In this document: in pieces, positions 1 through 22,616 of the stretch
Position numbering within the stretch: the first letter of the stretch is position 1
Layout: each line of letters begins with the position of its first letter
NCBI GenBank assembly: GCA_020428795.1
Contig: JAGQME010000003.1
Span: forward strand, 30,438 to 94,437
Direction: 5' to 3'
DNA: 64,000 bases
From: Candidatus Kaiserbacteria bacterium
Lineage (GTDB): Bacteria; Patescibacteriota; Minisyncoccia; Phycocordibacterales; UBA918
Position numbers and translations under genes: made by a program
Notes under the pieces: model-generated
Told to the model about the DNA's origin: nothing
What the model saw: the letters and a program-made list of their open reading frames with translations, nothing else
Databases searched by the model: none

Positions 1-679
1 GCACGTGGTCCCGTTTCTTTTGGGTTTACATAAGGAAGGCAGTAAAGATGGTCGTTCTTACACCTTAAAGGTGCGCGAGGAGGTCTTACCTTTTGTAGCC
101 AGAATCCCTAGTGCTCTTGATGAAGAGTATTTTGTCGGGGTGGTAGCTGAAGCTATCGGTAGCACCAAAGAAGCGGTTCGTCAGGATATGCAACGTTTTA
201 AACAAAAAACAGATAGTCCAGAGATAAAACCCGTAATTAGCAACGAACCTAATCTTAAAAAAGACACCAATAAGGCCAAGGATAGACTTCAAGATTTGGA
301 GCAATACGTAGCAGTAATGACGACGGTGTTGAATGATGATTTGGCTAAAAAAGTAAACAAGCTATTAACCAATGATTTGAAAATTGATTTAGACAAGGTA
401 CTCGATACCATGTCAGCTAGTAAGAAGAGTGAATTTACCTTTGGATTAGAAACTAAAGTCGCTGATAGTTCGTTACAACAGTTGCAAGAGGAGGTTATTT
501 CAGCGGTTACACAATTAAAAGCCTTAATTTTTTCTGCCCGATTAGCGGAACTTAAAGAAGCACTTAAGTTGGCCGAAAAAGAAAACGATGGTGCTAAAAG
601 CGGTGAGATTTTGCAGAAAATCACTGAATTGCAAAATCATAACCGAAACTTTGATCCAGAAGCGGTTATTTTAGGGTAG
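1..679 (+). CDS. dnaG: DNA primase DnaG, C-terminal fragment (5' end lies outside the window)
   Basis: The open frame enters from the window edge and ends about 90 bp upstream of rpoD, matching the conserved dnaG-rpoD synteny. It is a helical, acidic/lysine-rich C-terminal domain with no catalytic motifs visible, so the call rests mainly on synteny. Confidence 0.45.
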   Translation, partial: HVVPFLLGLHKEGSKDGRSYTLKVREEVLPFVARIPSALDEEYFVGVVAEAIGSTKEAVRQDMQRFKQKTDSPEIKPVISNEPNLKKDTNKAKDRLQDLEQYVAVMTTVLNDDLAKKVNKLLTNDLKIDLDKVLDTMSASKKSEFTFGLETKVADSSLQQLQEEVISAVTQLKALIFSARLAELKEALKLAEKENDGAKSGEILQKITELQNHNRNFDPEAVILG

Positions 680-770
680 GGTGGGAAAAGGGTGGTAGAA
701 CAATAGAGTGTTCCGACGAGCCTAAAATTGCTCTATTTGTATGGACTTTTTTCCTATTTAATGTATAGTT

Positions 771-2141
771 GTGCACATTATGGCTGCGCCAAAAAAAGCA
801 ACCAAAACCAAAAAAACAATCAAAAAAGCGGTCAAAAAAACCGTTTCTAAACCAAACAAGAAAGCTACTAAAAAAACAACCAAGAAGGTAGCTAAAAAAA
901 CCGTAAAGGGGAGCAAGACAAAAGTATCAAAGAAGGTGGTCAAGAAAACCCCGGCTAAAGCAAAGAAAACTACAGCCGCCAAAAAGAAGCCGGCGGTTAA
1001 AAAGGTGTCTAAGAAATCTAGTCAACCCAAAAAAGACACCAAAAAAGTATCTAAAAAAACTTCAAGAGTCTCGAGAGTGTTAGAAACCAAGGCTACCGAA
1101 TTGATGAAAATGGGTCGGGAAAGAGGTTATGTGACCTACGATGAGATATTGAAATTCTTTCCGCAGATTGAGAAAGATGTCATGTTTCTTGATGAGATGT
1201 ATGAGCGGTTTAGTATTGCCGGTATTGATGTTCTTAAGAGTGGTGGAATGTTGGGGGCTGACCCTAGTGTTGAACTGTTGGAAAGAAAGAACTCCTACCG
1301 CCGAAACGACAGTAGTTATGACTCGATCCAGATGTATCTACGGGAGATTGGTCAGTACCCACTTTTGACTGCACATGAGGAGCGAGTGTTGGCCAAGCGA
1401 ATCATGGAGGGTGATGAAGAGGCTCGAAATTTGCTAGCCAGAGCCAACTTAAGATTGGTAGTATCAATCGCTAAAAAATACGTTGGACGTTCACCGGATT
1501 TGACTCTTTTGGATTTGATACAAGAAGGTAATCTCGGTCTATTTAAAGCGGTCGATAAATTTGATTTCACTAAAGGTTTCAAATTTTCTACCTATGCTAC
1601 TTGGTGGATTAGACAAGCGATAACGAGAGCTTTGGCCGATCAGAGTCGAACAATCCGTATACCGGTGCATATGGTGGAGACAATGGCTAAATATAAACAA
1701 GTATCAAGGCGATTAGCTCAAGATTTTGGTCGTGACCCAATGCCGGAAGAGATTGCCACTGAGATGGGAGTAGAGGTTGAAAAAATCTACCAGATTGAAA
1801 AAATCAGTCAGGATACTATTTCTTTGGAGTTACCAATCGGTGACGATGATGACCGATCTCGTTTGTCTGATTTTATTGCTGACGATAAAATAACTGCTCC
1901 CGATCAAGAAGTGGCTCATAGTATTTTGACCGATCAGATTCAAGAAATATTGGATCATTTGTCCGACAAGGAAAGAAAGATACTGGAAATGAGACACGGG
2001 CTACTTGATGGGACTTATCATACTCTGGAAGAAGTCGGTAAAGAATTTGGAGTAACCAGAGAGAGAATTAGGCAGATTGAAGCCAAGGCTTTGGAGAAGA
2101 TTCGCCAACATGAAAAGGCTCGACGTCTGAAAAGCTACTAA
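771..2141 (+). CDS. rpoD: RNA polymerase sigma-70 factor RpoD with a lysine/alanine-rich histone-H1-like N-terminal extension
   Basis: Region 1.2/2 motifs are present: [57 protein letters not shown]. Region 4 HTH: [24 protein letters not shown]. The N-terminal ~100 aa consist of KKxAKK-type repeats. The true start may be the ATG at 780. Confidence 0.92.
786..1070 (+). repeat. Low-complexity AAA/GCN codon repeat encoding the KKAxKK (H1/AlgP-like) tail of RpoD
   Basis: Direct reading of the sequence shows reiterated aaaaaagc/accaagaag units. The antisense ORF 758..982 is a shadow of this repeat. Confidence 0.7.
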
Positions 2142-2162
2142 AATCTATATGCTTATTTAATA

Positions 2163-2200
2163 CCCAAACCGGTCGCAGGCAAAGCCTGCGACCGGTTTGG
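2163..2200 (+). terminator. Factor-independent terminator hairpin downstream of rpoD
   Basis: Perfect inverted repeat cccaaaccggtcgcaggc-aaa-gcctgcgaccggtttgg followed by a T-containing tract. Confidence 0.7.
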
Positions 2201-2230
2201 ATTTGGTACAATTAAGTTAACTAATTAAGT

Positions 2231-3007
2231 ATGCATCGAAAATTAATTATCTCAGCGATTGTAATCAGCTATTTGGTCTTGGTTACTTATGGACTACTAG
2301 CTCTTAACGCTCAAATTATTGTTACAAGTATCTTTTTGTTTGGTATACCAGCTTTATGGTTGGCGTATTTTTCAAGTGCTCCCAAGCCAGTCTTGATCTC
2401 TGTTAGTCTACTAGGGGTGGCCTTGGCGGTTTTCCTCGAAGGCCTAGCTCATATTTATGGCCTGTGGTATACGATGGGGGTGGATGAATCAAGGTTGTTT
2501 GGTTTGGCTCCAGTCGAAGCAATTTTTGCTACCGGTTTAGAAGTGGTATTTTTGGTGTTGCTTTATGAAGCTTTGTTTGATGATGGGGAGTATACCACTA
2601 AGCCAGCCCGTGAGCGGATGGGTATATTTTTTGTAATGTTTTTGGGTGCCATTGGTATTGTGGCTATTCATCAATACGTAATTAAAGATTTGTTTATCAA
2701 TAGTTCTTACCTCTGGATTATTAGCGCTCTGTTGGCTACTTGTTTTATGATGTTGTCTCTATACAGAACTTTCACTATTCGATTTTTGGATCGATTTGTT
2801 TACTTTACAGCCTTTGCTTCCATTCCCTTATTGTTAAATTTAATTGTATCAGTTTTGAACGTCCAAAAGGTCTACGCTCATTTCGCCTACGCTGCTAAGT
2901 TTAATTTTTTTGGGGAGATGGTTCCTTTGGAAGAAATATTACTTATTTTTACCGTCCCAATTTTAGTAGCTACGATCTACGAAATCTATCTTGATGACGT
3001 GGCTTAG
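2231..3007 (+). CDS. Polytopic integral membrane protein (about 7-8 predicted TM helices), function unknown
   Basis: Long ORF with hydrophobic segments throughout and no catalytic motif recognised. Confidence 0.5.
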   Translation: MHRKLIISAIVISYLVLVTYGLLALNAQIIVTSIFLFGIPALWLAYFSSAPKPVLISVSLLGVALAVFLEGLAHIYGLWYTMGVDESRLFGLAPVEAIFATGLEVVFLVLLYEALFDDGEYTTKPARERMGIFFVMFLGAIGIVAIHQYVIKDLFINSSYLWIISALLATCFMMLSLYRTFTIRFLDRFVYFTAFASIPLLLNLIVSVLNVQKVYAHFAYAAKFNFFGEMVPLEEILLIFTVPILVATIYEIYLDDVA

Positions 3008-3039
3008 ACGATATTGTTAATATAATATTTATACGGTTT

Positions 3040-3534
3040 CTAGCCAAACCAAGCGGAATTCTGTCCTAATTTTAAACCTTTAAAATTTGACCAAGGATCA
3101 ACGTTAATATAAGTATCATCTACTCTAACCCTTAAATACTGATGTATAAAAAAGTTAAATGGTCTGTGTATTATACGTATATCTTCTCCCTTAAAAAATA
3201 AACTTTTTTCTAAAATAGTTCTTAATATATAATTCTGGCCATTGCACTGAAGAAAACCTGGTGATTTATAAAGAGGATTACCAAAAGCTCTCCAAAAATA
3301 AAACACTGTCTTTATACGACTACCGTAGTATTGGCTTGTTACGTATTTATAAGCATTATCCAAAAATTCCTTCTTATTTTTAGAATTCAGATTCAATTCG
3401 TTAATAGTAGACTGTAAATCATTTGGAATTTTTTTTGGTAAGGAACTCTTTTTAAAGCCCATGTGAGGAACTAGTAATCTTAAAAGTATATGGACTACCA
3501 CTAAATATACTAAAAATATATATAAGACAATCAT
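3040..3534 (-). CDS. Membrane-anchored transglutaminase-like (papain-fold Cys-His-Asp) protein encoded in an AT-rich islet
   Basis: N-terminal TM helix. The order of residues C (FLQCNGQNY) ... H (IIHRPFNFFIHQY) ... D (VDDTYINVDPW) fits a transglutaminase-like cysteine-peptidase core. The DNA is visibly more AT-rich than its flanks. Confidence 0.4.
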   Translation of the reverse strand: MIVLYIFLVYLVVVHILLRLLVPHMGFKKSSLPKKIPNDLQSTINELNLNSKNKKEFLDNAYKYVTSQYYGSRIKTVFYFWRAFGNPLYKSPGFLQCNGQNYILRTILEKSLFFKGEDIRIIHRPFNFFIHQYLRVRVDDTYINVDPWSNFKGLKLGQNSAWFG

Positions 3535-17637: not shown

Positions 17638-18861
17638 ATGAAGGTACTGACATTTGGTTGGGATTTTCCACCACAAACTACCGGTGGTCTTGGTATCGCT
17701 TGTCAGGGTCTCACAAGAGAAATCGCTCAAGAGGGAGTCGAGGTCATTTTTGTACTGCCTAAGTCTCAGATCGTTGCGGGAACGCAGCGTTTTATTTTTG
17801 CTGATAGCTCAAAATCAATCAAAATCCACGAAGTATTTTCTAGCTTAGTGCCATACGGAACAGAGAGAACCATGGTAGATGTTTTCGATCGAATTACCGG
17901 CCGAAGACTTTATTCAAGAAAATTGATGGAAGAAGTACGAGAGTATGCCAACAAAGCAGCTAAAATAGCTGAAGAAGAGGACTTTGATTTAATTCACGCC
18001 CATGACTGGACGGCTTATTTGGCTGGGGTAGCCGCTAAGGTGGTTAGTGGTAAAAAGTTGATTATTCATGTCCATGCCACTACCTTCGACCAGGCGGCCA
18101 GCGATAATATTGATCCGGAAATTTTTAATATTGAACTTGAGGGTTTCAGTCAAGCCGATCAGATTATTGCGGTCAGTCATTACACCAAGAAGATGTTGGT
18201 TGAAAAACATAAAGTTCCGGCTGGTAAGATATCGGTGGTTCATAATGGTTGTGATACTGAAGATCCACCTTGTTATGAACCAACTCTACAAAACCTAAAA
18301 CAACAGGGTAAAAAAATAGTTCTTTATCATGGTCGCATTACCGTTCAAAAGGGAGTGGACTATTTTGTAAGAGCGGCTCGAATTGTGGTCGATCACGATC
18401 CGAATGTAGTATTTGTTATTTCTGGTAAGGGGGATATGGAAGCTCAGATTATGCAGCAGGTAGCCAGTCAGGGTCTATCAGATCACGTGATATTCGCTGG
18501 GGCTTTATGGTATGAAGAGCGAGATAGGATGTATCAAAGTGCCGATTTGGTGGTCATGCCTTCGGTGTCAGAACCATTTGGTCTGGTGCCACTTGAAGCT
18601 TTACAAAACGGTTCTCCGTCATTAATCTCTAAACAGTCAGGAGTAGCGGAGGTTATCTCTCATGTCTTGAAGGTAGATTTTTGGGATGTCGAAGAAATGG
18701 CTAATAAGATTTTAGCTACTTTACGTTATCCGGTTATGCAACAACAGTTGGTAAACGAAGGTAAGCGAGAGTTACAAAAGCTATCATGGCGTGAAGCAGC
18801 TAGAAAAGTGTTACAGGTTTACGAGCGAGTAATGCAGTTCATGCATCAAGAAGTATGTTAA
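17638..18861 (+). CDS. Glycogen-synthase-like retaining glycosyltransferase (GT-B; archaeal GlgA/GT4-GT5-like)
   Basis: N-terminal MKVLTFGWDFPP..GGLG (KxGGL-like) motif and a C-terminal GT1-type nucleotide-sugar binding region (EPFGLVPLEA). Confidence 0.75.
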   Translation: MKVLTFGWDFPPQTTGGLGIACQGLTREIAQEGVEVIFVLPKSQIVAGTQRFIFADSSKSIKIHEVFSSLVPYGTERTMVDVFDRITGRRLYSRKLMEEVREYANKAAKIAEEEDFDLIHAHDWTAYLAGVAAKVVSGKKLIIHVHATTFDQAASDNIDPEIFNIELEGFSQADQIIAVSHYTKKMLVEKHKVPAGKISVVHNGCDTEDPPCYEPTLQNLKQQGKKIVLYHGRITVQKGVDYFVRAARIVVDHDPNVVFVISGKGDMEAQIMQQVASQGLSDHVIFAGALWYEERDRMYQSADLVVMPSVSEPFGLVPLEALQNGSPSLISKQSGVAEVISHVLKVDFWDVEEMANKILATLRYPVMQQQLVNEGKRELQKLSWREAARKVLQVYERVMQFMHQEVC

Positions 18862-20273
18862 GTGTCTGTCCTTATTTTCATGTTCATCAACCGTACCGAG
18901 TCAAACAGTATCGGGTTTTTGACATTGGAAATGACACAGAATATTTTAACGATTCCGGATTGTCTGATCTAAATAATCGAAAAATTATAGAAAAAGTGGC
19001 AGACAAATCTTATCGACCAATGAACCATTTGCTTCACCAGATGCTCGAAGATCATCCTGAATTTCGTTTCGCCCTATCTTTTTCTGGTACGGTGTTGGAT
19101 CAATTTGAACAGTACGCTCCGGATGTTTTGGCGAGTTTTCAAAGTCTGGTCGCCACTGGTCGAGTTGAGGTGTTGGCCGATACTTATCATCACTCATTAT
19201 CATTTTTTTATTCTATACCAGAGTTTGAAAGACAGGTAGCTAAACACGCCAAGCGAGTCTACGACCTTTTTGGTTATACTCCGGCGGTATTTCGAAACAC
19301 AGAATTATCCTACCGTAATGATTTAGCAAAATGGTGTGAAGATCACGGCTACATCGGTATTATGGCTGAGGGTTGGGATCCTATCTTGGGTTGGCGTAGC
19401 CCTAATCATCTTTATCGTCCGGTTGGCTGTGCTCGTATTAAGGCCTTGCTCAAAAATTACAAACTCTCTGATGATATCGCTTTCCGCTTTGGTAATCGAG
19501 CTTGGGAAAGCCACCCCCTGTCAGCTGAAACTTTCGCCGACTGGATATTCAAACACCACGGTGATGCCAGTACCATCAATCTTTTTATGGATTACGAGAC
19601 CTTTGGTGAACACCAATGGGAAGATACTGGGATTTTTGATTTCATGGCGGCTTTGCCAGATAAGTTGTTAGCGCACCCTGATACCACCTTTAAAACTCCC
19701 ACTGAAACAGTCAAGGCCTACGAGGTGGTAGGGGAAATTGATGTACCCGATGTTCTTACTTGGGCGGATACTGATAGAGACCTGACAGCTTGGACTGGAA
19801 ATGATATTCAAAAAGACGCTTTGAGTCGGACCTACGCTATGGAGTCAGACGTTATAAATACTGGTGATGATTCTCTGACAGAAACTTGGCGTAAACTAAC
19901 CACTTCTGATCACTTTTATTACATGTGCACCAAATGGTCTGCTGATGGTGATGTACACGCCTACTTTAGTCCCTATCAATCCCCATATGACGCATATGTC
20001 GCTTTCATGAATGCGCTAAGTGATTTACAATTACGAGTATCACATGCGCTTCAACAAAAAAGCGTTCAGGAGGAGTTGCTTAAAGCGGAGACTGAGGCGA
20101 TAGAGAAACCGGTCCCAAAAGCAAACGAACCCGCCTATGGTTTTTGGAAACGGATAGTATATTTTGTTTCCACCAAGGTAAAATATATTATCGGTTCTTT
20201 AAAAGTTCATTTTTATAAAAAATATGCCAATCAAAAAACCAGCCACCAAAAAAGTAGCCAAAAAGACAGCTAA
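18855..20273 (+). CDS. Glycoside hydrolase family 57 protein (alpha-amylase / 4-alpha-glucanotransferase / branching-enzyme family)
   Basis: N-terminal HQPYR motif, conserved GH57 blocks (EGW..., ETFGEHQWED) and a C-terminal helical domain. Confidence 0.8.
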   Translation: MLSVCPYFHVHQPYRVKQYRVFDIGNDTEYFNDSGLSDLNNRKIIEKVADKSYRPMNHLLHQMLEDHPEFRFALSFSGTVLDQFEQYAPDVLASFQSLVATGRVEVLADTYHHSLSFFYSIPEFERQVAKHAKRVYDLFGYTPAVFRNTELSYRNDLAKWCEDHGYIGIMAEGWDPILGWRSPNHLYRPVGCARIKALLKNYKLSDDIAFRFGNRAWESHPLSAETFADWIFKHHGDASTINLFMDYETFGEHQWEDTGIFDFMAALPDKLLAHPDTTFKTPTETVKAYEVVGEIDVPDVLTWADTDRDLTAWTGNDIQKDALSRTYAMESDVINTGDDSLTETWRKLTTSDHFYYMCTKWSADGDVHAYFSPYQSPYDAYVAFMNALSDLQLRVSHALQQKSVQEELLKAETEAIEKPVPKANEPAYGFWKRIVYFVSTKVKYIIGSLKVHFYKKYANQKTSHQKSSQKDS

Positions 20274-20640
20274 AAAAGTTGTTGCTAAAAAAACTATCGG
20301 TAAGAAAGTGGCCAAGAAGGTTACTAAAAAAGTCGCTAAAAAATCGGTCGCTAAGAAGACTAAGTCAAAAACCAGAGTCTTGGTCTGTGCCAGTCCGGAC
20401 AATTGTTTTTGGACAACTGACGGTCAGATTTTGCAGGATTTAAATGAGTTACAAATCGCTCTCTCGGCTATGGAAGAGGCGGTGTTTAATTATCATGTTC
20501 AAGCTGACAAAAACGATTTTGCCAATTGGGTGGAGGCTGTCTTGGATGATGCTGATTGTGCTTTTGAATTAAGAAGTGCTACCGCTCCCAATGAAGCCAG
20601 ATCAATCGTGGTGCGACATTTGCGGACATATAATTTTTAA
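20224..20640 (+). CDS. Histone-H1-like lysine/alanine-rich protein with a C-terminal globular domain of unknown function
   Basis: N-terminal ~55 aa of KKVAKK repeats, followed by a ~80-aa non-repetitive domain. It overlaps the 3' end of the GH57 gene by ~50 nt in another frame. Confidence 0.5.
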   Translation: MPIKKPATKKVAKKTAKKVVAKKTIGKKVAKKVTKKVAKKSVAKKTKSKTRVLVCASPDNCFWTTDGQILQDLNELQIALSAMEEAVFNYHVQADKNDFANWVEAVLDDADCAFELRSATAPNEARSIVVRHLRTYNF

Positions 20641-20645
20641 TTTTC

Positions 20646-22616
20646 ATGGCTAGAGCGGCAACTTTGGGAAATGGCAATATATTAGTCGGCCTTGATTATC
20701 GAGGTCAGGTTAGGGATTTTTATTACCCGTTTGTTGGTCATGCCAATCATGTTAGTGGTGCTAGTGGGAACTATGTACATCGCTTAGGTGTCTTTGTTGA
20801 CGATAAAATATCGTGGTTAGATGAAGAGTCTTGGGATGTTACCGTCGGAGCTGATCCTGAAACCGTGACCGGTAGTGTAGTGGCGATAAATACCAAGCTC
20901 GGTATTACTTTAAAAAGTATTGATGTTGTCCATAACGAAGAGAATATTTTTTTGCGTTCCTTCACTCTCACTAACGATAAAAAAACTAAGCGTGAGATAA
21001 CCCTCTTCATCTCACAGCAGTTTAGAATTTCTGAATCGAGGCGTGGTGACACCGGTTTCTACGATCCAAGGGTGGGGGCGATTATTCATTACAAGGGTAC
21101 GGATACTTTTTTGGTAAACGCTTTTAATGGTGACAAACAATTCACTGAGTATAATATTGGTCTGTTTGGTATTGAGGGTCGGGAAGGTACTTATCATGAT
21201 GCTGTCGATGGAGTCTTGGAAAAAAATCCAGTGGAACACGGTTCGGTTGATTCGGTCATTGGGATGAGTGTTAATTTGGCTTCTGGTGGCACCAGTGATT
21301 TTTCCTACTGGATCGTCTGTGGAGCTAACATTAGTGAAACTCACAAACTTAATCAACTGGTGTTGGAGGAGACTCCTGAAGCCTTGGTTAGAACTACAGA
21401 AAAATACTGGAAGGCTTGGATAAGTAAAGATGCCCGGGATCTCTCTTTATTATCTAAACCTTTACAAACCCTTTATACTAGATCATTGACTACCATCAGA
21501 GTTCATACCGATAATCGTGGTGGAATAATTGCTTCTAGTGATACCGATATGCTCCACCATGGGCGAGATACTTATAGTTATGTCTGGCCAAGGGACGCCG
21601 CTATTATTGCGCACAGCCTTGATTTGAATGGTTACTCAGATGCAACCAAACAATTTTTCAGTTTTATGGCCAAACGCCTAGAACCAGATGGATACTTGAT
21701 GCACAAATATCGTAGTGATGGAACTTTGGGCAGCTCATGGCACCCGTGGATGATAGATGGTCGGCCAGAGTTACCGATTCAAGAAGATGAATCAGCTCTG
21801 GTGTTGTATATGCTATGGCAACACTACGCTTTGGTAAAAGATTTAGAATTTATTGAGTCACTTTATAACGATTTTATTGAACCGGTGGCCAACTTCATGT
21901 CTGAGTTTATGGTTGGTGAAACTGGTCTGCCTGAAGCCACTTATGATTTGTGGGAGGAAAAGTTTGGTACTCACACTTACACCGCTTCGGCAGTCTATGG
22001 CGCTTTGCTGGCCGCCTCATCCTTTGCCAACTTACTGGGCAAAGAAGAACCAGCTCGTACCTACAGCGCCGTGGCACAAAGAATACAAAGCTCAATTATG
22101 TCACAATTATATGATGAGGAGACTGGCATGTTCATTAAGTGCCTAAGAGCTTATGATGATCGTGATGTCGAATATGACAAGACAGTAGACATCAGTAGTT
22201 TTTTTGGACCGATTTATTTTGGAGTTATTGATATAGATGACGAAAGAGTTGAAAGAGCGATTAAGGTGATTGAAGCTAGATTGAGGGTTCAGGCTTCGAG
22301 TGCTGGTTATATGAGGTATGAAAATGATAATTACTACACTTTACAAGATGCTGGTTCACCAAATCCGTGGGTAATTACGACTCTATGGGTCGCTCAGTAC
22401 CACATCATGAAGGCAAAAAATATTGATGAATTAAAACCGGCCTATGATCTATTGGAATGGACCTGTAGCCACGCTACCGCCGGTGGAGTATTGTCCGAAC
22501 AAATGCATCCACACACCAGAGAACATCTATCCACTTCACCTTTGATTTGGAGTCACGCCGAGTTTGTGATTACGGCTGATGCTTATATTAAGAAATATCA
22601 AGAGTTGATAGTGTAA
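20646..22616 (+). CDS. Glycoside hydrolase family 15 (glucoamylase/glucodextranase-like)
   Basis: N-terminal beta-sandwich region plus an (alpha/alpha)6 catalytic domain with GH15 blocks (YSYVWPRDAA, LWEE..G.HTYT). Confidence 0.8.
   Translation: MARAATLGNGNILVGLDYRGQVRDFYYPFVGHANHVSGASGNYVHRLGVFVDDKISWLDEESWDVTVGADPETVTGSVVAINTKLGITLKSIDVVHNEENIFLRSFTLTNDKKTKREITLFISQQFRISESRRGDTGFYDPRVGAIIHYKGTDTFLVNAFNGDKQFTEYNIGLFGIEGREGTYHDAVDGVLEKNPVEHGSVDSVIGMSVNLASGGTSDFSYWIVCGANISETHKLNQLVLEETPEALVRTTEKYWKAWISKDARDLSLLSKPLQTLYTRSLTTIRVHTDNRGGIIASSDTDMLHHGRDTYSYVWPRDAAIIAHSLDLNGYSDATKQFFSFMAKRLEPDGYLMHKYRSDGTLGSSWHPWMIDGRPELPIQEDESALVLYMLWQHYALVKDLEFIESLYNDFIEPVANFMSEFMVGETGLPEATYDLWEEKFGTHTYTASAVYGALLAASSFANLLGKEEPARTYSAVAQRIQSSIMSQLYDEETGMFIKCLRAYDDRDVEYDKTVDISSFFGPIYFGVIDIDDERVERAIKVIEARLRVQASSAGYMRYENDNYYTLQDAGSPNPWVITTLWVAQYHIMKAKNIDELKPAYDLLEWTCSHATAGGVLSEQMHPHTREHLSTSPLIWSHAEFVITADAYIKKYQELIV

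Follow-up and report, generated by a model that had tools for sequence, protein, structure and literature searches.

The primary sigma-70 factor gene (rpoD) of a Candidatus Kaiserbacteria bacterium, located on a 64,000-nucleotide stretch of contig JAGQME010000003.1 (assembly GCA_020428795.1; this whole stretch is termed the window here, and all positions follow its numbering), encodes a protein that begins with a long lysine-rich tail ahead of sigma region 1.1. The tail is translated together with the rest of sigma. Primary sigma factors have it throughout the Parcubacteria/Paceibacteria clade, in which charge and approximate length are maintained rather than sequence. We consider it probable that this disordered polycation, joined to region 1.1 and held at a high charge across the clade, gives sigma or its holoenzyme a sequence-independent affinity for nucleic acid, with duplex DNA as the likeliest partner.

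The original prediction, an earlier reading of the same DNA, described the first ~100 residues of RpoD as lysine-rich, and the extension is real: residues 1–97 contain 41 lysines (42%) and carry a net charge of +41. The parts of the gene are as follows:

780..2141, + strand: rpoD, primary sigma-70 factor, 453 residues plus stop, complete gene
771 (GTG)/780 (ATG)..2141, + strand: open reading frame (ORF) as listed, including an alternative GTG start
780..1070, + strand: polycationic N-terminal tail, residues 1–97 (42% Lys, net +41, predicted disordered)
rpoD residues 105–155, + strand: region 1.1 (Pfam Sigma70_r1_1, E = 3.5e-11)
1071..1337, + strand: region 1.1 and the linker to region 1.2, residues 98–186 (net −3)

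A Pfam scan of the whole protein recovered Sigma70_r1_1, r1_2, r2, r3, and r4 in order, all above gathering cut-offs, and a complete primary sigma factor is accounted for from residue ~95 onward of the 453-residue protein. The top NCBIfam model (NF006666, PRK09210 RpoD) also matched from residue 95, with 432.8 bits against a cut-off of 572, and TIGR02393 (RpoD_Cterm) reached 346.1 bits against a cut-off of 354. The window sigma is clearly closest to RpoD, yet lies just under the NCBI thresholds, which were set on cultivated phyla. An identical 453-residue protein is held by NCBI (100% identity, 100% coverage), annotated in Candidatus Kaiserbacteria as a “sigma-70 family RNA polymerase sigma factor” that starts at ATG 780.

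The tail is predicted to be intrinsically disordered, based on an AlphaFold2 model (40-sequence alignment) with a predicted local distance difference test score (pLDDT) of ~30 and no secondary structure over residues 1–93, the first helix beginning at residue 96. Its coding strand is A-rich (51% A), as had been proposed, but the DNA repeat proposed along with it is weak (Tandem Repeats Finder periods of 9–24 nucleotides, 2–4 imperfect copies, scores of 30–69). The periodicity sits in the protein, where KK recurs every 4–5 residues (~14 KK dipeptides per tail) and the autocorrelation of Lys has maxima at lags 1, 4–5, and 8–9. Pooled tails comprise 36% K, 16% A, 13% V, 9% T, 6% P, 5% S, and 3% R, and AAA makes up 62% of their Lys codons, versus 43% in the core portions of these genes (window plus 78 related loci). 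The likeness to histone H1 claimed at the outset holds for composition only. The tail alone matched no Pfam family at E ≤10 (including linker histone, Hc1, and HC2), and S/TPKK motifs average 0.27 per tail across 78 tails, with none in that of the window. A phmmer search of the tail against all PDB sequences likewise yielded nothing meaningful (only a de novo designed protein, E = 2.7).

Conservation of the tail and the charge of region 1.1

Relatives were drawn from the 120 nearest database homologues (76%–96% identical, 430–480 residues), from 80 species-representative genomes, and from a second Parcubacteria branch sampled via relatives of P0127 (including Campbellbacteria and Pacebacteria). 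The species-representative genomes (loci L001–L080) were found using a core-only query and read from DNA without gene calls; all belong to Paceibacteria (Kaiser-, Nomura-, Adler-, Taylorbacteria, and similar). A Lys-rich N-terminus of ~74–124 residues (median 89), usually starting MAAKKATKK, was present in 120/120 of the close homologues. An ATG followed by a basic tail of 55–138 residues (median 93, net +23 to +47) was found in 77 of the 80 species loci, and the other three were either frameshifted within the tail (L010 and L024) or cut by a contig end (L039). Basic tails were also present in 119/119 second-branch proteins (52–150 residues, net +22 to +64). Thus, of about 320 relatives compared, each of the 318 whose N-terminus is readable has the tail, and its net charge is never below +22.

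What is conserved in the tail differs from what is conserved in the remainder of the protein. Across 40 aligned homologues, the core is nearly invariant, while the tail conserves composition only. Among genes with a core guanine-plus-cytosine (GC) content of 38%–60%, the share of Arg among basic residues climbs with GC (Spearman’s rho 0.46, P = 3e-5). The replacement of Lys by Arg as GC rises indicates that positive charge is being kept, not A-rich DNA. In addition, 28 out of 150 diverse 50%-identity cluster representatives nearest the core have a strongly basic 40-residue window before region 1.2, and basic extensions hence recur in other primary-sigma lineages.

Region 1.1 is usually regarded as an acidic DNA mimic that keeps free sigma off DNA and gates the DNA channel of the polymerase; in known holoenzymes, it sits in the downstream DNA channel and is expelled upon open-complex formation. 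The net charge of −3 on region 1.1 and its linker in the window sigma is in keeping with the close homologues, where the region 1.1–1.2 segment has a median of −5 (range −8 to −2), versus −19 for the aligned segment of Bacillus subtilis SigA. With the tail added to a near-neutral region 1.1, the N-terminal part of sigma is net basic instead of an acidic DNA mimic. The whole window sigma has a net charge of +34 (residues 213–453 contribute −3), which is unusual among primary sigma factors. Among 41 diverse representatives with an alignable region 1.1, the region 1.1 segment had a median charge of −8.5 where a basic N-terminal extension was present versus −13 where it was not (Mann-Whitney P = 0.006); for this small and taxonomically unlabelled sample, the result is suggestive of basic extensions going together with a less acidic region 1.1.

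Promoter, start codon, and genomic context

The original prediction also placed the tail within the protein rather than in a 5′ untranslated leader. This was upheld by the length of the open frame, by a conserved ATG and promoter, and by the relatives. The upstream features are as follows:

742..769, + strand: promoter-like block from a consensus scan, with a −35-like TGGACT (742–747), a 16-nucleotide T-rich spacer, and a −10 TATAGT (764–769)
770..779, + strand: 10-nucleotide gap between the −10 element and the ATG, with the palindrome TGTGCACA at 770–777 and no Shine-Dalgarno sequence
780..782, + strand: ATG start codon of rpoD, where the NCBI protein begins and relatives begin with a conserved MA(A/T)KKATKK

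The block at 742..769 is the sole such match within the window. The window and 77 related loci make 78 in all, and in 42 of them a block cTGGACAtTTTt..ggtTTTtCTGTATAGT ends 8–12 nucleotides upstream of the ATG, and the spacing is 9–11 nucleotides in 38 of these 42. Its consensus is cTGGACA-N16-TATAGT, with the TATAGT positions 97%–100% conserved. The gap that follows often holds a TGTnnACA-type palindrome (e.g., TGTGCACA in the window and TGTCGACA in L013), which could serve as an operator spanning the point where transcription starts.

Two start positions, 771 and 780, had been offered as ATG codons, of which ATG 780 stands. Position 771 is a GTG, and was rejected as a start because it lies only 2 nucleotides after the −10 box. 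The next in-frame ATG is codon 109, within the region 1.1 helix, and in-frame GTG codons occur at positions 53, 76, and 100 of the reading frame. The missing Shine-Dalgarno sequence before ATG 780 is uninformative, as only 3 of 46 window ORFs of at least 150 residues have a Shine-Dalgarno core (GGAG/GAGG/AGGA/AAGG) within 20 nucleotides before their first ATG. A TAnAnT hexamer ends 6–13 nucleotides before the ATG in 13 of the 46 long ORFs (a raw count, uncorrected for chance). The organism seems to start translation largely without Shine-Dalgarno sequences and, possibly, often from leaderless transcripts.

Upstream of region 1.1, each of the 77 complete species-representative loci has an open frame of 64–158 codons, versus 426 stops per 7,246 codons in each of the other two frames of the same DNA (~1 per 17 codons). 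Zero in-frame stops is true by construction, given that the tail was set from the first ATG, and the informative comparison is that of open-frame length with the stops in the other frames. An Rfam scan of positions 1..2400 (E ≤1) gave no match within the tail or ahead of it, and the first 150 nucleotides of the predicted mRNA folded into weak hairpins only (−21 kcal/mol, z = −2.2), which was judged not meaningful.

Further features lie to either side of rpoD and elsewhere in the window (40.4% GC):

5..679, + strand: 3′ portion of dnaG (C-terminal region of the primase), truncated where the window begins (BLASTP E = 2e-20)
2164..2200, + strand: perfect 17-bp GC-rich hairpin, CCAAACCGGTCGCAGGC-aaa-GCCTGCGACCGGTTTGG, read from the sequence, 23 nucleotides past the rpoD stop
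20224..20640, + strand: NCBI hypothetical protein KC845_01320, 138 residues, with a Lys-rich tail (residues 1–52) and a conserved 86-residue C-terminal domain

The ORF at 5..679 matches the C-terminal 210 residues of a 588-residue DnaG encoded upstream of rpoD in L005, which carries Pfam Zn_ribbon_DnaG, DNAG_N, and Toprim. In the window, L005, and L081, dnaG precedes rpoD, which is the canonical dnaG-rpoD arrangement. The gene hence occupies the housekeeping context of group 1 (RpoD/SigA-type) sigma factors, and appears to encode the essential housekeeping sigma. The hairpin at 2164..2200 is the probable rpoD terminator. It was absent from the output of a consensus terminator scan because the T-run after it is weak and short, and an Rfam match to “mir-1420” across 2164–2200 (E = 0.63) was dismissed as noise. 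L081 comes from a distant relative that also bears the tail (P0211), and there rpoD is followed by a gene (2913–3482) for a ribosomal protein S16 of 189 residues. This is about twice the usual S16 length, and may represent another lineage-specific extension.

A six-frame scan of the 64-kb window detected at least 14 Lys per 30 residues in only two real ORFs, rpoD and 20224..20640 (KC845_01320). In the latter family, which has 262 database matches, a basic tail occurs in 118 of 120 homologues (median 48 residues, 38% Lys, net +19). The 86-residue domain has a sub-threshold match to DUF5752 only (E = 0.012), and the tail a sub-threshold match to Pfam HC2 (E = 0.11, 13 bits against a cut-off of 40). 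The gene lies between GH57 and GH15 glycoside-hydrolase genes (18855–20273 and 20646–22616), and it shares ~50 nucleotides at its start with the end of the GH57 ORF. A closely similar tail had been reported on this small protein. It is the same kind of tail, but the close similarity did not hold: BLASTP of the sigma tail against the KC845_01320 tail gave no alignable similarity (E = 24), and the two are therefore alike in composition, not by descent. Opposite to the two Lys-rich regions are Phe/Leu/Val-rich ORFs of 74 and 67 residues (758–982 and 20199–20402, both − strand). These were rejected as genes, as they mirror the Lys-rich coding sequence (AAA/AAG read as TTT/CTT).

Possible roles of the tail and alternative explanations

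Through the tail, sigma would gain an electrostatic, salt-sensitive affinity for nucleic acid of any sequence, with DNA as the most plausible target. Such an affinity could keep sigma or the holoenzyme on the nucleoid, speed the one-dimensional search for promoters by sliding or hopping, and/or clamp flanking DNA so as to stabilize promoter and open complexes. It would accompany the loss of strong negative charge from region 1.1 and its linker. By analogy, the lysine repeats of Streptomyces TopA and DdbA make non-specific DNA binding a reasonable expectation. Several points weigh against this explanation. None of the papers found shows directly that a sigma tail binds DNA. Database proteins have N-termini predicted by gene callers. 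Transcription is predicted to start at ~775–777, from the usual spacing of −10 to +1, and would leave a leader of 3–5 nucleotides. The tail-bearing KC845_01320 adjoins glycoside hydrolases and has no recognizable DNA-binding domain, from which it follows that Lys-rich tails in this lineage are not confined to obvious DNA-transaction proteins. Lastly, the Ala/Lys-rich extension of ribosomal protein uS19 in Parcubacteria fits RNA binding equally (PMC9297842).

The main alternative is that the tail acts largely away from chromosomal DNA, either on RNA (nascent transcripts, rRNA, or ribosomes), polyphosphate, or another polyanion, or by folding back, within or between molecules, on acidic surfaces of sigma or the core enzyme and so regulating holoenzyme assembly. 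We regard this as a serious though less likely possibility. It draws on the uS19 extension (PMC9297842), on the carbohydrate-metabolism neighborhood in which KC845_01320 carries the same type of tail, and on the capacity of polycationic disordered regions to bind any polyanion. A fold-back would, nonetheless, find little negative charge in the rest of sigma (−3 in region 1.1–1.2 and −3 in residues 213–453). Moreover, sigma works on DNA, and the tail is joined to region 1.1, which lies in the downstream DNA channel of known holoenzymes.

It is improbable that the tail is selectively neutral and lacks its own function, having been produced by A-rich mutational drift and the ready expansion of repeats where an N-terminus tolerates them. 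The unconserved, low-complexity sequence with its fast indel evolution would fit such an origin, as would the similar tails on unrelated proteins of the lineage. However, neutral drift does not account for a tail that is present in all ~320 relatives at a net charge of no less than +22, or for its persistence at 38%–60% GC through Lys-to-Arg substitution without loss of charge. The codon arrangement, furthermore, avoids long A-runs, and a promoter and ATG are fixed directly upstream.

The tail was also suggested to vary in length and to be prone to slippage. Variation in length was confirmed: the compared relatives range from 52 to 150 residues, and alleles with 100% identical cores differ by indels of whole repeat units. 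For example, P0058 has 8 residues more than P0052 in the VKK-repeat region, and P0120 is without 5 residues (KKVAV) found in P0116. The near-identical alleles P0011–P0015, on the other hand, have identical tails. In a DNA alignment with the closest species (L001), identity is 77% in the core versus 58% in the tail, which is old divergence under relaxed sequence constraint and not recent hypermutation. Slippage proneness is only half right. Six A7 runs occur within the 291 nucleotides of the window tail, where 7 is also the longest A-run. Across 78 tails, A-runs of 8, 9, and 10 or more were observed 36, 1, and 0 times, compared with expected counts of 80, 35, and 14 when synonymous codons were shuffled tail by tail, and the longest run was 9. 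This depletion points to selection against slippery poly(A) and further indicates that the region serves as expressed coding sequence.

In L010 (~2300–2504) and L024 (~2200–2504), the tail is split between two frames, the first with the ATG and the Lys-rich N-terminal part and the second with the remaining tail and the core; these frameshifts may reflect homopolymer assembly error or real slippage. A contingency (phase-variable) locus, in which slippage at A-runs would often switch the expression or length of sigma, could draw on the six A7 runs, on the frameshifts in 2 of 80 species loci, and on the repeat-unit indels between identical-core alleles. This reading is very improbable. Contingency loci are built on a long homopolymer or perfect short tandem repeat, but the A-runs here are no longer than 9 and the repeats imperfect. 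Runs of ≥8 are depleted 2- to 35-fold relative to synonymous shuffles and none reaches 10, the P0011–P0015 tails are identical, and the L010 and L024 frameshifts may be assembly errors. As rpoD appears to be essential, switching it off by frameshift would also be lethal.

The least probable alternative of all, that the A-rich stretch is a 5′ untranslated leader with translation starting downstream, could appeal to the missing Shine-Dalgarno sequence and the in-frame GTG codons, but is rejected given the 64–158-codon open frame in all complete loci against a stop per ~17 codons elsewhere, the conserved ATG with a promoter 9–11 nucleotides upstream, Lys-to-Arg compensation that tracks GC, near-identical alleles that differ by in-frame indels only, the lack of any Rfam match, and a genome generally without Shine-Dalgarno sequences.

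A polycationic tail that binds nucleic acid, most likely DNA, is hence the reading we prefer. A bolder form of it, which we consider doubtful, is an inversion of charge, in which the acidic, auto-inhibitory region 1.1 of textbook sigma-70 would have turned almost neutral and gained a tail of net +25 to +60 ahead of it. Free sigma, as well as the holoenzyme, would then be DNA-resident and partly comparable to a nucleoid-associated protein. Promoter search and stabilization of the open complex would be altered accordingly in these tiny cells with few factors, and the palindromic leaderless promoter could be directly autoregulated. More generally, a major uncultured lineage with a net +34 sigma, a near-neutral region 1.1, and a conserved polycation may differ in promoter search and open-complex formation in its minimal cells. 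The annotated start was confirmed here, and near-leaderless starts without Shine-Dalgarno sequences matter for gene calling in this group. Some of this was already known, as the protein is in databases with the correct start and lysine repeats have been mentioned for HrdB and Bordetella pertussis RpoD (PMC5714199). What stands out is that the tail lies at the extreme N-terminus, that the genome is low in GC, and that region 1.1 has lost its acidity alongside.

Comparison with known lysine-rich extensions

The closest solved homologue of the window sigma is B. subtilis SigA (PDB 7CKQ_F), residues 5–369 of which align with residues 93–453 (E = 5e-107). SigA has no N-terminal extension, and the tail is, relative to it, a pure N-terminal addition. 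It is found at the extreme N-terminus, ahead of region 1.1; in Streptomyces HrdB, lysine repeats lie after region 1.1. No paper in the literature searched dealt with a primary sigma factor whose N-terminus is Lys-rich, basic, or disordered, with sigma tails in Patescibacteria/Candidate Phyla Radiation, or with a test of any tail borne by sigma. The sole relevant literature found comprised brief mentions of HrdB and of B. pertussis RpoD (PMC5714199) and a note on uS19 (PMC9297842).

Lysine repeats have been listed for HupS, Ku, FtsK, and HrdB of Streptomyces and for B. pertussis RpoD (Strzalka et al. 2017, PMC5714199), and those in the C-terminal domain of Streptomyces TopA stabilize the enzyme-DNA complex (PMC5714199). 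The sigma tail resembles them as a set of low-complexity Lys/Ala/Thr-rich repeats on a protein that works on DNA, a primary sigma factor (HrdB) being among the known cases (PMC5714199). With its terminal region of short Lys repeats, it can be classed with the Actinobacterial-type lysine repeats, by composition and motif and not by homology. The authors of that work tied such repeats to GC-rich genomes (PMC5714199). In contrast, the GC content of the window is low, and the tails occur across a core GC of 38%–60%. This add-on, earlier tied to GC-rich Actinobacteria, is thus extended to low-GC Parcubacteria, on several unrelated proteins.

A second parallel is Streptomyces DdbA (SCO2075), in which an H1-like Lys-rich N-terminal domain binds and condenses DNA in vitro (PMC3643593). 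Both DdbA and the window sigma are proteins of the transcription machinery with a Lys-rich N-terminal extension, which in DdbA measures ~93 residues and is built of pentapeptide repeats of the (S/T)(A/T)AKK type (PMC3643593), although no sequence homology was detected between the sigma tail and DdbA. Unlike sigma, DdbA has a DksA-like partner domain (which binds RNA polymerase at the secondary channel), is developmentally regulated, and is non-essential.

The tail also shares features with the C-terminal domain of histone H1, chlamydial Hc1/Hc2, and Pseudomonas AlgP, all being disordered polycations of ~100 residues with ~40% Lys and short-period KK. Unlike linker histones H1/H5, however, the window protein has no globular winged-helix, its Pfam matches being to sigma domains only. 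Sigma tails are, moreover, enriched in Val (13%) and Thr (9%) instead of Ala and Pro, and have nearly no S/TPKK motifs and no KPAA repeats.

Within the same group, uS19 of Parcubacteria bears an Ala/Lys-rich C-terminal extension (PMC9297842). It differs from the sigma tail in being shorter (~25 residues), C-terminal, and part of a ribosomal protein (PMC9297842), where it presumably contacts RNA. Like the sigma tail, it is a lineage-specific, Lys-rich, and low-complexity addition to a nucleic-acid-binding protein (PMC9297842). Together, sigma, KC845_01320, and uS19 show that Lys-rich tails recur as an add-on in this lineage.

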